Source of the DNA: Eubacteriales bacterium
GTDB lineage: Bacteria > Bacillota > Clostridia > Oscillospirales > CAG-272
Direction: 5' to 3'
Length of the DNA: 32,710 nt
Assembly (NCBI GenBank): GCA_046156285.1
Contig: JAZNCB010000047.1
Location: forward strand, 1-32,710
The notes beneath the pieces are model-generated. The model saw only the letters and a program-made list of their open reading frames with translations, had not been told where the DNA came from and made no database searches. Positions 6,778 through 32,140 of this stretch are shown here, piece by piece. The number at the start of each line of letters is the position of its first letter. Position 1 is the first letter of the stretch. The position numbers were made by a program, and so were the translations under genes.

Positions 6778-7554
6778 ATGGGATATAAATACAGCTTGAA
6801 TATCGACGGCTTTTCTATTGAAAAGATTAATATCTTTTCGGTTTCACGGGAAAAAAATTACAAGCATTCGTTTATGGACGGACGTCCGTGCCACGCCTTC
6901 ATTTATACCGAAAGCGGAAGCATACTTGATGAATTTGCTCATCCGAGGGTTGAGAAAATAGTCGCAGGCAGCGGAACGCTCGTTTTCATACCCAAGGGGA
7001 CGAGGTACTCAGCAACCTACCTTGACGACGAAACAAAATTAAAAACCGTGCAGTTCGAGATAAATACCGGCGCGCTTCCGCCATATCTTTGCACCCCGCA
7101 GAAAATCGAGCTAACGAATGCGAGGGCTGTTATCAATTCCTTCTTCAACGCTATCGAAAATGCGAAAGCAAATCACACATTTCATTACATTTCGCTCCTT
7201 TATGACCTGTTTTGGCAAATAGATACGCAATATAACGGTCTTCCTAAAAAATTTATGCGTCTTGCCGCCGCCCTTGAAGATATATCCGTCTCGCCCGAGA
7301 AAAATGAAAAAATATCCTATTACGCAAATATGTGTTTTATGAGCGAGGTAAATTTCCGAAGGCTTTTCCGAGAATATACCGGAAAATCTCCGATAGAATA
7401 CCGAAACGAATTGCGGCTGAAAAAAGCAAAATCAATGCTTCAAAGCGGAGAATATAACGTTTCTGAATCCGCAGAAGCCACCGGGTTTACAAACCTTTCG
7501 TTTTTCATAAGGCTTTACAAAGAATTTTTCGGTCATACTCCCAAAAAAGAATGA
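6778..7554 (+). CDS. AraC family transcriptional regulator (cupin + HTH)
   Basis: The C-terminal AraC HTH signature is present (FRRLFREYTGKSPIEYRNELRLKKAKSML...GFTNLSFFIRLYKEFFGHTP). It is divergent from the uxaC operon. The RBS is GAGGTGAGG. Confidence 0.85.
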   Translation: MGYKYSLNIDGFSIEKINIFSVSREKNYKHSFMDGRPCHAFIYTESGSILDEFAHPRVEKIVAGSGTLVFIPKGTRYSATYLDDETKLKTVQFEINTGALPPYLCTPQKIELTNARAVINSFFNAIENAKANHTFHYISLLYDLFWQIDTQYNGLPKKFMRLAAALEDISVSPEKNEKISYYANMCFMSEVNFRRLFREYTGKSPIEYRNELRLKKAKSMLQSGEYNVSESAEATGFTNLSFFIRLYKEFFGHTPKKE

Positions 7555-15144: not shown

Positions 15145-16086
15145 ATGAGAAAAGTAAAGCTCGACGATTCGTATAACCTTAATCTTCTCGGCACGAAAAA
15201 GACGTTTGACGTCGTGGCAGTTGTCAGCGCGTACAACTTTACGAGAATGCCTCCGAATTTTGTTCCGAGGTGGGAGAAATACAATTTCTCGCAAATGATG
15301 CTGGTGCTTGACGGAGAGGGAAAATATATAACCGAGGACGCAGAATACGACATCACGCCCGGTAAAATGTTTTACCGCCCCGCCTACAAAAGCTCAATAT
15401 ACAAATGGGATACCAAAGAGGTAAGATATGCGCTTATCAGCTTTGTATGCGATTCCGAGGCTATGTCGGTTTTTTCGGGCGAGCCGATTACTCTTTTTGA
15501 GGAGGAGCAGACAATTTTGCTCGATGCCATCAAAACCGGAGCTAAAATCTGCGAGCCTCTTCACAAAAACGGACCTGCAAAGAAAAACGCGCATCTTCGC
15601 GGAATGAGATTTAAGGAGGGAGTGCCCGACGTCGTGCTCGGATTTATCTCATCCTCCTTCGAGAGATTTCTCTCAATGGTTTATTGCAGACTGTGCAATA
15701 TAGAGCTTTTATGCGATGAGTCGCAAAAGGTGAATATGTATATCGGAAACACGCAGTTTATCGACAGAGTTACCGAGTATATGACCGAGCATCTTTCCGA
15801 ATGGCTCACTCTTGGCAAAATCTGCGCCCATTTCGGCATAAGCCAAGCGGGACTTACGAGAAAATTCCGCCGCGAGTGCGGAAAAAGCGTTATGGAATAT
15901 TTTGCTCACCTCAAAATCGGCGAGGCAAAGCACCGCATTGAAAAAACTACGCAAAGCTTTGCCGAAATTTCCGAGTCTCTCGGCTTCTCTACCTCAAACT
16001 ATTTTTCAAAGGTTTTCAAAAAGTGCACCGGAATGACACCCACCCAATACAGTAAATTCGTTTCCAAAAGACGAAGCATAAAATAA
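15145..16086 (+). CDS. AraC family transcriptional regulator
   Basis: The C-terminal AraC HTH is present (LGKICAHFGISQAGLTRKFRRECGKSVMEYFAHLKIGEAKHRI...GFSTSNYFSKVFKKCTGMTPTQY). The RBS is GGGAG. Confidence 0.85.
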   Translation: MRKVKLDDSYNLNLLGTKKTFDVVAVVSAYNFTRMPPNFVPRWEKYNFSQMMLVLDGEGKYITEDAEYDITPGKMFYRPAYKSSIYKWDTKEVRYALISFVCDSEAMSVFSGEPITLFEEEQTILLDAIKTGAKICEPLHKNGPAKKNAHLRGMRFKEGVPDVVLGFISSSFERFLSMVYCRLCNIELLCDESQKVNMYIGNTQFIDRVTEYMTEHLSEWLTLGKICAHFGISQAGLTRKFRRECGKSVMEYFAHLKIGEAKHRIEKTTQSFAEISESLGFSTSNYFSKVFKKCTGMTPTQYSKFVSKRRSIK

Positions 16087-16088
16087 AA

Positions 16089-16203
16089 GCGTCGTCAAAC
16101 GATGCAATGAAATGCGACTTTGTCGCTTGAAATGACGTCAAGCCGTCTTGAAATGGTCGCACGCAACCGCAAAATGCACCCGCACACTTGGGCGAAAATG
16201 AAG
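16089..16203 (+). repeat. Hairpin array with conserved WTGAAAT linkers (array A)
   Basis: GCGTCGtcaaaCGATGC-AATGAAAT-GCGACtttGTCGC-TTGAAAT-GACGtcaagcCGTC-TTGAAAT-... The array begins 3 nt after the AraC stop codon. Confidence 0.6.
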
Positions 16204-16254: not shown

Positions 16255-16299
16255 GAGGGCAGCTCAAGCTACAAAGCTTGGTCTGCCCTCTTTGATTTG
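16255..16299 (+). terminator. Intrinsic terminator downstream of array A
   Basis: GAGGGCAG-ct-CAAGCT-acaa-AGCTTG-gt-CTGCCCTC is followed by TTTGATTTG. Confidence 0.65.
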
Positions 16300-16323: not shown

Positions 16324-17922
16324 TTATATTTCGCGCTCGAAGAAGCCCTCAAGTCTTACAGGGCTCTTGCCCTGCGGCTTGATTTTGCCAAGGATAACCT
16401 TTGCCGCCGCAATCTGCGAGGTTGCAACGCCTGAGTATGCGTTGACGTAGGTTTTAAGATAGGGGAAATCGTAGAGCTTATACGGGTCGCCAAACGAAAC
16501 GAAGACGAGCTTTGGGTGCTTCAGGATATATCCGCGCCAGAAGAGCTTTACGTTGTTCCAGCCTACTCTGAGAGTTGCGCCGTGATAGTTCATACAGTTC
16601 ATATTGCAGTTGATTACTATCGCGTCATAGTCGTCCATAATATCCTCGATATCATAGTGCTTCGGCGAATACATAACGTCAACCGAAATTCCCTCTTTCT
16701 CGAATTCAGCCTTCATAGGCTCAAACTCGTTGCCAGTGGGATTTCTTCTGCCGTTAAGCTCCATCATTATAATCATAAGCACGCGGCTTCCCTTTTTGAG
16801 ATCAAGAGGAAGAACGTTTTTCATATTTCTTATAACTGTAATACTCTTGTCGGCAATCTTCTGCGAAATTTCCATAAGCTCGGCATTTACGCTCTTGGGG
16901 TCACCCATCTCGACGGGCTTGTTGTCGAAAAGCTTTGCCTTTTCTTTAAGAACAAGGATACGGCGAACCGCATCTTTAAGTCTTTCAATAGAAAGCTCAC
17001 CGCGCTCGATAGCGCCCTTTATGTTCTCAAAATCGTTCTTCTCCGGGAAGAGCACGAAGTCACCGCCTGCGGCAAGGAAAGTCGATGCGATTTTATCAAT
17101 ATCAATACGCGAGCAAACGCCTATCATACTCATAGCATCGCTCATTATACAGCCGTCAAAGCCGAGCTCGCCTTTGAGAAGGTCGGTCATAAGGCTCTTA
17201 CTAAGCACCGCAGGGGGTGCACCGTAGAAATCGTCTACGTTCTCTTCAAACGCGGGGACTGCAATATGCGCCGCCATAATAGCGTCAGTGCCTGCGTCTA
17301 TCATTCTCTTCCAGACCATTCCGTAGGTCTTCATCCACTCTTCACGGGAAAGAGGATTTATCGTAGTCATAAAGTGCTGGTTGCGGTTGTCCATACCGTC
17401 ACCGGGGAAATGCTTCGTGCAGTTGAGAAGACCGCTGCTCTTCGCACCCTTTGCATAAGCCTCTGCAATCTTTGCAACGTGTTCGGGATTGTCGGAAATG
17501 GAACGAATATTTATTACGGGGTTCTCGAAATTCATATTTATATCAACGACGGGGGCAAGCGCCATGTGCATATTGCGAAGCTGCTGTGCCTTTGCGGTAG
17601 CCTTACCTGCCTCGTAAGCAAGCTCTACGTCGTCAGCCGCGCCAAACGCCATATTTGACGGGAAGGAAATTACCTGATTGGTAAGTCCCCACTCAACGTC
17701 ACAGGTCGTAAGCACGGGCGCTTTCGTATACTTATTAACGATATCAACGTACGTCTGTATACGCTCGTTTGATACACCGTTCAAGAAAATTCCGCCGGGC
17801 TTTATTTTCTTGACAAATTCCTCAAACTCTACGAGGTCATCATCGTCCTTGAACTGATAGCAAAGCACCTGACCTATAAGGTCGTCAAGGCTCATTTCTT
17901 CAACAAGCTTCTGAATGTCCAT
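16324..17922 (-). CDS. Glycoside hydrolase family 3 (NagZ/beta-hexosaminidase- or beta-glucosidase-like)
   Basis: The KHFPGDG motif and the nucleophile region GCIMSDAMSM are present. It is 532 aa with a C-terminal alpha/beta domain. The RBS is AAGGAG. Confidence 0.8.
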   Translation of the reverse strand: MDIQKLVEEMSLDDLIGQVLCYQFKDDDDLVEFEEFVKKIKPGGIFLNGVSNERIQTYVDIVNKYTKAPVLTTCDVEWGLTNQVISFPSNMAFGAADDVELAYEAGKATAKAQQLRNMHMALAPVVDINMNFENPVINIRSISDNPEHVAKIAEAYAKGAKSSGLLNCTKHFPGDGMDNRNQHFMTTINPLSREEWMKTYGMVWKRMIDAGTDAIMAAHIAVPAFEENVDDFYGAPPAVLSKSLMTDLLKGELGFDGCIMSDAMSMIGVCSRIDIDKIASTFLAAGGDFVLFPEKNDFENIKGAIERGELSIERLKDAVRRILVLKEKAKLFDNKPVEMGDPKSVNAELMEISQKIADKSITVIRNMKNVLPLDLKKGSRVLMIIMMELNGRRNPTGNEFEPMKAEFEKEGISVDVMYSPKHYDIEDIMDDYDAIVINCNMNCMNYHGATLRVGWNNVKLFWRGYILKHPKLVFVSFGDPYKLYDFPYLKTYVNAYSGVATSQIAAAKVILGKIKPQGKSPVRLEGFFEREI

Positions 17923-31886: not shown

Positions 31887-31984
31887 GCGGTTTCCCAATT
31901 TCGAAAAAATTTCGTATATAATACAAAAGCGGAACTATCGCCGTGTGATATAACCACCTTGATAATTCCGCTCTTTTCGGTTTT

Positions 31985-32140
31985 AATGAAATGTTTTGCT
32001 TGGCGCAAAACTTGAAATGAAATAACTCCCCAATGCGCCGGGGCGCATTTCATTCGCCTTGGCGAATTTCAAGCACGAAGTGCATTTCACAAATCCCTTG
32101 CGGGATTTATTTCATTGCGTTGCGCCATCTGGCGCAACGC
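31985..32140 (-). repeat. Hairpin array with conserved WTGAAAT linkers (array B)
   Basis: Read on the minus strand from the ASRT-like stop: GCGTTGCGCCagatGGCGCAACGC-AATGAAAT-AAATCCCgcaaGGGATTT-GTGAAAT-GCACttcGTGC-TTGAAAT-TCGCcaagGCGA-ATGAAAT-GCGCcccgGCGC. One unit in the opposite orientation follows at 31985-32023. Confidence 0.6.

Follow-up and report, generated by a model that had tools for sequence, protein, structure and literature searches.

Which element forms the row of short GC-rich hairpins directly behind an AraC-type regulator gene in a Eubacteriales genome of the CAG-272 lineage (assembly GCA_046156285.1), and at what level would it act? The hairpins lie at 16087-16203 on the forward strand of contig JAZNCB010000047.1, whose 32,710 nucleotides were analysed as a whole and are called the window here. 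A first-pass annotation had described this row (array A) and a second one on the other strand (array B) as hairpins with unrelated stems separated by a conserved heptamer, and could place them in no named family. That last statement was wrong, as array B is Rfam RF01706, the Gut-1 RNA. Membership of RF01706 is set by the gathering score of its covariance model, 50 bits; array B scores 52.5 bits in cmscan at 32042-32117 on the minus strand, over the full model (1-77), and is a full Gut-1 member. Array A, with the whole model aligned at 16081-16159 (+), stays below the threshold at 28.8 bits, with an E-value of 7e-4 in a 291-nt search and 0.08 window-wide, and is best treated as a sub-threshold, degenerate and partly decayed relative of Gut-1. 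The model consensus, CAAUGAAAU-hairpin-GUGAAAU-hairpin-GUGAAAU-hairpin-GUGAAAU, has the same layout as the window arrays. Since a match to a described Rfam family was an outcome that the first-pass annotation had itself named as decisive against its claim, the claim of novelty is removed. The element is already catalogued, and it is the survey of the family that might be worth following up. Throughout, the identity of Gut-1 is much firmer than its function.

Array B is the canonical copy of the window, supported by both the Rfam match and the fold, and occupies 32035-32140 on the minus strand, where a second array had been reported. It has four linkers (32109-32114, 32084-32089, 32066-32071 and 32047-32052) and three internal hairpins, hp1 at 32091-32108, hp2 at 32073-32083 and hp3 at 32054-32065, with hp0 (32117-32140) in front and hp4 (32035-32046) behind, all on the minus strand. 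The five hairpins fold cleanly, with z = -4.9 and none of 200 shuffles as good. A closing tail and an inverted half, of both polarities, follow at 31987-32034. The tail, GGGGAGTTATTTCA on the minus strand, is nearly the reverse complement of linker 1 and the 5' arm of hp1, with one mismatch, and beside it a short array of opposite polarity lies on the plus strand at 31987-32023, with TGAAAT at 31987, 32013 and 32018 and the hairpin GTTTTGC-ttggc-GCAAAAC. Two loops of array B are exact inversions of those in related copies: the hp0 loop AGAT (window 32127-32130) reads ATCT in the near-identical array of L001 (1931-1934), a 2-kb contig that is the one on which the ASRT-family protein encoded upstream of array B was matched, and the hp1 loop GCAA (window 32098-32101) reads TTGC in the homologues L165 and L212. 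Such inverted loops suggest flipping at the DNA level, possibly mediated by the palindromes.

Array A was confirmed letter by letter, in its coordinates as well as in its alternation of linkers and hairpins after the AraC stop codon (TAA, 16084-16086, +). All of its parts lie on the plus strand. The first hairpin, hp0 (GCGTCG-tcaaa-CGATGC, 16089-16105), begins 3 nt past the stop, contains one G:T pair and has no T-tract. It is followed by linker 1 (AATGAAAT, 16106-16113), hp1 (GCGAC-ttt-GTCGC, 16114-16126), linker 2 (TTGAAAT, 16127-16133), hp2 (GACG-tcaagc-CGTC, 16134-16147) and linker 3 (TTGAAAT, 16148-16154), so that array A holds three canonical linkers and two internal hairpins besides hp0. 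The remainder (16155-16203) is a decayed tail with the degenerate linkers CAAAAT and GAAAAT and GC-rich segments without pairing; its z of +0.83 gives no structure signal, in agreement with the earlier description of two poorly pairing segments. Within it, GTCGC at 16156-16160, the complement of the hp1 5' arm, resembles the closing tail of canonical copies. Compared with the Gut-1 consensus, array A differs in having only three canonical linkers, a T in place of G or A before two of them, and the decayed tail. Its fold is marginal (z = -1.83), with 11 of 200 shuffles equally good.

The crowding of linkers in the window was measured against shuffled sequence. TGAAAT-N8-30-TGAAAT occurs eight times against 0.36 expected, and none of 100 shuffles reaches eight, so the linkers cluster beyond chance, as had been proposed; six of the eight close pairs fall within arrays A and B. 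The first-pass estimate of about 16 TGAAAT in the window was too low, composition-matched shuffles giving 32, against 49 observed. An explanation by chance, in which TGAAAT happens to cluster beside unrelated small palindromes, could draw on the marginal fold of array A and on its score below the Rfam threshold, but the excess of pairs at this spacing and the repetition of the full architecture in array B and in 97 arrays elsewhere practically refute it.

Those further arrays were collected with the pattern CAATGAAAT-N10-24-TGAAAT-N10-24-TGAAAT in a collection with one genome per species, which gave at least 120 matches, of which the first 120 were examined. The further copies on which the earlier claim depended are abundant: among the matches listed, 61 of 120 loci carry 97 hairpin-supported arrays, and 27 arrays across 18 of the survey loci score above the Rfam threshold, at 51-81 bits. 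The positive loci among these matches are Clostridia/Eubacteriales metagenome-assembled genomes (MAGs) from human and ruminant guts, labelled Acutalibacteraceae, Oscillospiraceae, Faecousia, Ca. Limivicinus, Ca. Fimenecus, Congzhengia and Ruminococcus sp.; the exceptions are three oddly labelled bins, L122 (Bacteroidaceae), L220 (Roseburia) and L225 (Anaeroplasmataceae). Cultured isolates among the matches listed gave only hairpin-less chance matches, except L239 (Enterococcus avium), a chance match within a gene. That match (7330-7390) and L163 1516-1617, a 24-nt coding tandem repeat with TGAAAT inside a gene, were excluded from the statistics. On viral contigs a pattern of three TGAAAT returned chance matches only, and the specific pattern returned two real arrays in 120 listed matches, so that Gut-1 can be rejected as a phage element. 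Nor did array B find a BLAST match among annotated plasmids and phages. Several loci (L166, L158, L193 and L176) hold three to five arrays within 8 kb, with a maximum of five in L166. Two loci show repetition on a larger scale, L176 with three Gut-1 matches in tandem (1226-1659) and L249 with an array composite in three repeats (about 900-1500, an assembly gap of N included).

Previous knowledge of the family is slight. Weinberg et al. (2010; PMC2864571) listed 43 Gut-1 examples from "human gut only", classed as "RNA: yes, cis-regulatory: no", and were silent on function; a literature search on Gut-1 RNA found nothing past that one 2010 sentence (PMC2864571). The published alignment (PMC2864571) already contains GUGAUAU linker variants, arrays that run forward and then in reverse, and one copy past a tRNA gene and its terminator. 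The published habitat, gut metagenomes, is the same as that of the surveyed arrays. Gut-1 was, however, published as a stand-alone metagenome sRNA, whereas the survey places it in MAGs of Acutalibacteraceae/Oscillospiraceae type, those of the ruminant gut included, and adds hairpin 0, the closing tail, the convergent pairing of arrays and DNA-like stem and loop statistics.

The unit of the family, a dispersed intergenic repeat of uncultured Clostridia in gut and rumen, consists of four RTGAAAT (or TGATAT) linkers alternating with strictly Watson-Crick mini-hairpins of 4-8 bp, and exactly four linkers are present in 72 of the 97 arrays. Hairpin 0 precedes linker 1 and, in 35 of 99 arrays, runs into a T-tract in the manner of an ordinary terminator. 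Behind the fourth hairpin, which follows the last linker, the tail is often the reverse complement of linker 1 and the 5' arm of hairpin 1; the complement is exact over at least 8 nt in 24 of 94 arrays (control: 1 of 94), and the tail covaries with its partner, for example TCGTTCC/GGAACGA, TCGCC/GGCGA and AAATCCC/GGGATTT. Among the intergenic arrays, 42 of 90 belong to convergent pairs, which on one strand read as four TGAAAT units and then three or four ATTTCA units. Arrays with TGATAT linkers occur beside TGAAAT arrays in the same loci (L166 2939-3658, L157 3403-3567, L128 1337-1385, L200 606-660 and L204 2076-2155); the variant is usually uniform over an array and its inverted partner, as in L166 and L157, while L204 mixes both linkers.

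The stems are conserved in shape and not in sequence, which upholds the earlier observation of constant linkers between stems that vary and yet pair. Across 67 four-linker arrays, in which hairpins were picked by their pairing, Watson-Crick pairs fill 1008 of 1024 stem cells, a number that drops to 448 once the partners are shuffled, and beyond the closing pair each stem position is found with all four pair types. The 272 hairpins have 230 different spacer sequences, and even copies from the same locus or the same MAG differ.

The array stems were compared with T-tract-anchored, terminator-like hairpins from the same loci under the same scoring. Array stems contain 11 G:T and 7 A:C in 1432 pairs (0.8% G:T), against 183 G:T and 51 A:C in 3021 pairs (6% G:T) in the control, so that G:T is rarer in the arrays with a Fisher p of 6e-20. 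The hp0 hairpins of the survey, with 12 G:T and 1 A:C, resemble RNA terminators. The closing pair is C:G in 88% of the array hairpins, and the loops are small, with 3 nt in 157 and 4 nt in 104 hairpins. Read on the TGAAAT strand, the loops take the form T(N)NC, with ends T..C in 169 cases against G..A in 2; with the C:G closure, the ATTTCA strand therefore carries C(GNA)G or C(GNNA)G. These are the loops of "mini-hairpin DNA", which owe their stability to the C:G closure and are far less stable as RNA (PMC3201870, PMC13037366). The loop polarity tracks that of the linkers regardless of the direction of the neighbouring gene, at 66:1 in sense and 36:1 in antisense arrays. The scarcity of G:T, the form of loops and closing pairs and the gene-independent loop polarity together would argue against selection on one RNA strand, and transcription of the arrays remains compatible with them. 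The stem and loop statistics, which look DNA-like or strand-symmetric, lend no support to the first-pass idea of a decisive single-stranded UGAAAU in RNA.

Intergenic positions account for 90 of 101 arrays. On the linker-1 side, 51 arrays have a feature within 80 nt, 31 of them lying past the end of a co-oriented gene or tRNA and 20 at the start of an opposite-strand gene; on the tail side only 6 arrays have a feature nearby, so the arrays point inward from both intergenic edges. Both window copies start just after a stop codon, as described earlier, and this is one of the two standard positions; the proposed rule of a 3'-UTR site between stop codon and terminator is not general. In full order, the composite reads gene or tRNA, terminator, (TGAAAT-hairpin)x4, tail, (hairpin-ATTTCA)x3-4, sigma-70 promoter and next gene, and many arrays do lie in the stretch between a strong terminator and the following promoter. 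The promoter may even touch the array, with the -35 hexamer adjoining the last linker (ATTTCA directly followed by TTGAAA-17-TATAAT) in 12 of 90 arrays (controls: 1 of 90). Genes for tRNAs precede 13 of the 36 arrays that have a co-oriented feature within 120 nt upstream, and the isoacceptors vary. Special placement between convergent genes, as antisense protection, was considered and finds no support in the orientation counts.

Unrelated genes past such composites also share nearly one promoter, 5' UTR and ribosome-binding site (RBS), TTGCGC-17-TATAAT ... GGCGGTGA ... ATG, seen at L166 1540-1660 and 3440-3510, L156 7230-7350, L193 290-360 and in L150. The Gut-1 repeat thus seems to carry a portable expression cassette.

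Taken together, these observations are read here as a boundary repeat of REP/BIME-like type, strand-symmetric and based on hairpin extrusion, with a putative protein binding the linkers, instead of a dedicated 3'-UTR RNA; the probability given to this is about one half. Hairpins could be extruded on both strands, in DNA or in whichever transcript crosses the array, and the ATTTCA strand would then present extra-stable C(G(N)NA)G loops. The constant linker would be the recognition site of the putative protein, and the hairpin stack would serve as a boundary, either as 3'-end barriers or as weak serial terminators against polymerases heading to the neighbouring gene.

Several points weigh against this interpretation. 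Observed directly are the membership in the family, the architecture with its covariation, the statistics of stems and loops and the position in the genome; the level of action (DNA or both strands) and the boundary function we infer from sequence statistics only. Those statistics come from a survey biased by requiring CAATGAAAT at linker 1 and by taking the first 120 matches, and the picking of hairpins by pairing inflates the Watson-Crick fraction, with the terminator control scored likewise. GNRA and UNAC-type tetraloops are also stable in RNA, and Gut-1 was judged "certainly RNA" by Weinberg et al. (PMC2864571). A hairpin followed by AUUUCA, with just three U's, is a poor intrinsic terminator, and convergent-gene sites are not enriched for arrays, solo arrays numbering 16 co/co against 5 co/anti. 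Unlike REPs, Gut-1 stems are not conserved in sequence, and the 25 commonest of the 118 Pfam families in the 104 open reading frames (ORFs) flanking the arrays include neither a Y1/RAYT-type gene nor a transposase. Array A in particular barely beats shuffles in its fold and may be a non-functional relic.

The published view would make Gut-1 a structured RNA of the TGAAAT strand, an sRNA or a 3'-UTR platform, on which UGAAAU is shown single-stranded to an RNA-binding protein or endoribonuclease so that hairpin-protected mRNA 3' ends result. RNase Y-type cleavage, after a G in an A/U-rich stretch and guided by a downstream hairpin, would be an example of such an activity. Besides the Rfam model and the judgement of its authors, the position of both window copies and of the 31 surveyed arrays within 80 nt past a co-oriented gene or tRNA fits this view; both window arrays also lie upstream of a terminator-like hairpin and hence would be transcribed, and the G:T pair in hp0 of array A forms on the plus strand only. 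It does not account for the 20 arrays oriented opposite to the adjacent gene or for the many placed between a strong terminator and the promoter that comes after it. Nor does it predict that G:U is nearly absent and in no excess over A:C, unlike in terminator hairpins of the same loci, that triloops dominate, or that loop polarity favours stability on the other strand. An RNA function of this kind is considered unlikely. A selfish origin, as a MITE-like or tandem-expanding repeat without host function that is tolerated between terminators and promoters and of which array A is a decaying relic, would explain a different set of facts: the dispersed and multi-copy occurrence, as in L166 (five arrays in 8 kb), L176 (three in tandem) and L249 (triplicated composite); the ends that resemble terminal inverted repeats (TTTCAATGAAAT ... 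ATTTCATTGAAA); homologous copies behind unrelated genes; the gain and loss of whole hairpin-plus-linker units between related loci; the patchy distribution, with none in about 37 kb from relatives whose GH28 is 62-72% identical; and the degeneracy of array A. Copies within one genome are nevertheless highly diverged while they keep perfect pairing, C:G closure and loop polarity, which indicates long-term purifying selection and not recent bursts. No target-site duplication was found, nor a transposase among the most frequent families of the flanking ORFs, and the four-linker format is strictly kept, in 72 of 97 arrays. Such a repeat without function appears improbable.

The boundary reading calls for a protein partner, and the best lead for one, by association only, is a gene of the PF05635/TIGR02436 family ("four helix bundle / 23S rRNA IVS protein"). 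It is the top family among the 104 flanking ORFs and occurs in 14 of the 61 positive loci (L129, L132, L138, L153, L158, L160, L175, L179, L192, L200, L202, L205, L206 and L235), its promoter fused to the array composite. The gene stands behind tRNA-Leu, Ser, Gly, Val or Arg, or else behind a GGGtGRT gene, and its downstream neighbours vary as well. When loci were chosen by the protein alone (L249, L252, L262, L265 and L266), five of five showed the order promoter, tRNA, terminator, composite, promoter, PF05635 gene and a small variable gene, with the composite triplicated in one. The small variable gene encodes DMP19, nucleotidyltransferase-like, pyrophosphatase-like, DUF3481 and other proteins. 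The closest solved relatives of the PF05635 protein, 2RLD and 2GSC, were each deposited with five chains, and the family is related to Avd, an accessory protein of diversity-generating retroelements (DGRs) (PMC10053308). The array might be the binding site of a pentameric PF05635/TIGR02436 protein of the Avd/23S-rRNA-IVS type, the copy in front of the gene being autoregulatory and the dispersed copies secondary, in analogy to RAYT and REP. This is compatible with the boundary reading, and the constant fusion of promoter and array pair amid changing neighbours, the shared layout of the protein-selected loci, the five-chain structures and the kinship to Avd speak for it. A hitch-hiking cassette could produce the same association, however, most arrays, both window copies included, have no such gene nearby, and the arrays never flank the 3' side of the gene. 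This binding-site explanation is considered unlikely.

The four-helix-bundle protein linked to the arrays is itself very common, with at least 8000 homologues at E <= 1e-10, and throughout the best 120 clusters of these (clustered at 90% identity) the identity to the query is 86-96%. Many lie on contigs shorter than 2 kb, as is expected of a multi-copy or assembly-breaking module. No PF05635 gene is present on the 32.7-kb window contig. A HEPN-type Rx4-6H motif in the protein was considered and dropped, as L153 and L129 have H in place of its arginine.

Other identities were tried and rejected. The internal array hairpins lack the form of intrinsic terminators, as they are followed by (R)UGAAAU or AUUUCA, and TTTT follows only hp0, in the 35 of 99 arrays given above and not on the sense strand of the window copies. 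A CRISPR array is excluded by repeats of 6-7 nt and "spacers" that are palindromes of 10-27 nt, and the CRISPR-DR models gave chance scores only. Clostridiales-1, the Rfam motif singled out for checking by the first-pass annotation, has no match at E <= 10 on either array, and TD-2 and Mahella-1 reach chance-level scores only. The linkers are not start codons of mini-ORFs or leader peptides, since ORFs that open at a linker NTG have a median length of 9 aa and the spacing modulo 3 is uniform (88, 98, 90). A long rod formed by UGAAAU/AUUUCA pairing across a convergent pair is predicted by RNAfold but is inseparable from the inverted symmetry, and it is not claimed.

The surroundings of the two window copies follow one order, different from that of the full composites, namely stop codon, hp0 without T-tract, array and then a terminator-like hairpin, so both copies are probably transcribed with their upstream gene. 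Behind array A, a long hairpin at 16255-16290 followed by TTTGATTTG (16255-16299, +) lies outside the repeat and is the likely terminator of the AraC transcript. The first-pass annotation had listed it as a separate terminator; hairpin and trailing sequence are indeed present and the assignment is plausible, but the terminator consensus scan did not pick it up. The AraC-type regulator ORF (15145-16086, +) and the GH3 glycosidase gene downstream (16324-17922, minus strand) are convergent, and their 3' regions overlap at array A. No hairpin with a T-tract was seen on the GH3 side ahead of the array. On account of both the overlap and the missing GH3 hairpin, both strands of array A may be transcribed. 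On the minus strand, the hairpin stack finishes with hp0 and then TTTTATTTTAT, exactly at the AraC stop codon. Behind array B, a long hairpin at 31929-31971 followed by TTTTGTATTAT on the minus strand (31918-31971) is likewise a likely terminator. Beyond both lies the promoter of the GH28 gene, TTTACA-17-TG-TATAGT, a near-consensus extended -10 promoter at 31886-31858 on the minus strand.

The genes of the window are carbohydrate-oriented, with GH3, GH28, two AraC regulators, an ASRT-family protein and FeoB, and no tRNA gene is present in its 32,710 nt. The organism is poorly sampled, as the closest GH28 relatives are just 72-73% identical. GH28 homologues of 62-72% identity stand in other gene neighbourhoods, and about 37 kb around them contain no arrays. 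A metagenome scan with GH3 found relatives of only 45% and 28% identity, and the AraC protein had no match in the assembly index. At 215-320 on the minus strand of the window, the Rfam model of the enterobacterial sRNA STnc240 scores 32.9 bits, short of its threshold of 55 (E = 0.25), almost certainly by chance.

Gut-1 has been a functionally orphan family, and the survey gives it concrete handles: its hosts, the four-linker format with its tail, the convergent pairs, the DNA-type signature and the links to tRNA and PF05635 genes. If the reading as a DNA-level boundary element is true, gut Firmicutes would have a counterpart of REP/BIME that is based on shape and not on sequence, and the "sRNA" annotation in Rfam would need revision. 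A more far-reaching proposal, improbable as a whole, is that Gut-1 might be no sRNA but the nucleic-acid half of a REP-like system peculiar to uncultured Oscillospirales, in which shape-defined mini-hairpins of free sequence, spaced by a fixed RTGAAAT and extruded in DNA with C(GNA)G loops on one strand, would be read by a pentameric Avd-like PF05635 protein, whose promoter is built into the best-conserved copies past tRNA genes, and would mark or insulate the boundaries of transcription units. If such a PF05635-REP-like system is true, it would provide the first function both for an orphan Rfam motif and for a very abundant non-DGR PF05635 family.

Among known systems, intrinsic terminators, bidirectional ones included, are also GC-rich hairpins at gene ends, and on the ATTTCA strand a Gut-1 unit is a hairpin followed by AUUUCA. 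The array hairpins differ from them in having no proper U-tract, almost no G:U and another spectrum of loops and closing pairs. Type III toxin-antitoxin arrays (ToxI/ToxN) share with the PF05635-linked copies the tandem structured units upstream of a small gene for a nucleic-acid-binding protein, a putative one in the case of PF05635. ToxI repeats are identical units of 34-36 nt that are transcribed with the toxin. In Gut-1 the units differ in sequence, a promoter separates the array from the gene, and most arrays are far from such a gene. The mini-hairpin DNAs d(GCGNAGC) and d(GCGNNAGC) (PMC13037366, PMC3201870) have the same C-GNA-G and C-GNNA-G ends as most Gut-1 hairpins on the ATTTCA strand, but they are a physico-chemical motif of phage origins, ssi signals and N4 promoters and not a repeat family, and no link to arrays has been described. 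Closest are the REP, BIME and REPIN elements (PMC3116915, PMC3337134), which share with Gut-1 short extragenic palindromes in many copies, a conserved short flanking motif, direct and inverted clusters at the ends of transcription units, and hairpins active in single-stranded nucleic acid. Within one genome, REP stems share their sequence; Gut-1 keeps only the shape, the C:G closure, the loop polarity and the 6-7 nt linker. A BIME is made of REPs in alternating orientation, while in Gut-1 four direct units come before an inverted block, and REP hosts are Proteobacteria with RAYT transposases, a phylum different from that of the Gut-1 hosts. Gut-1 is thus like REPs in being extragenic, clustered and at unit ends, and unlike them in that the palindrome sequence is not conserved per genome; of the interpretations that the first-pass annotation had offered, the REP/BIME-like one fits best.

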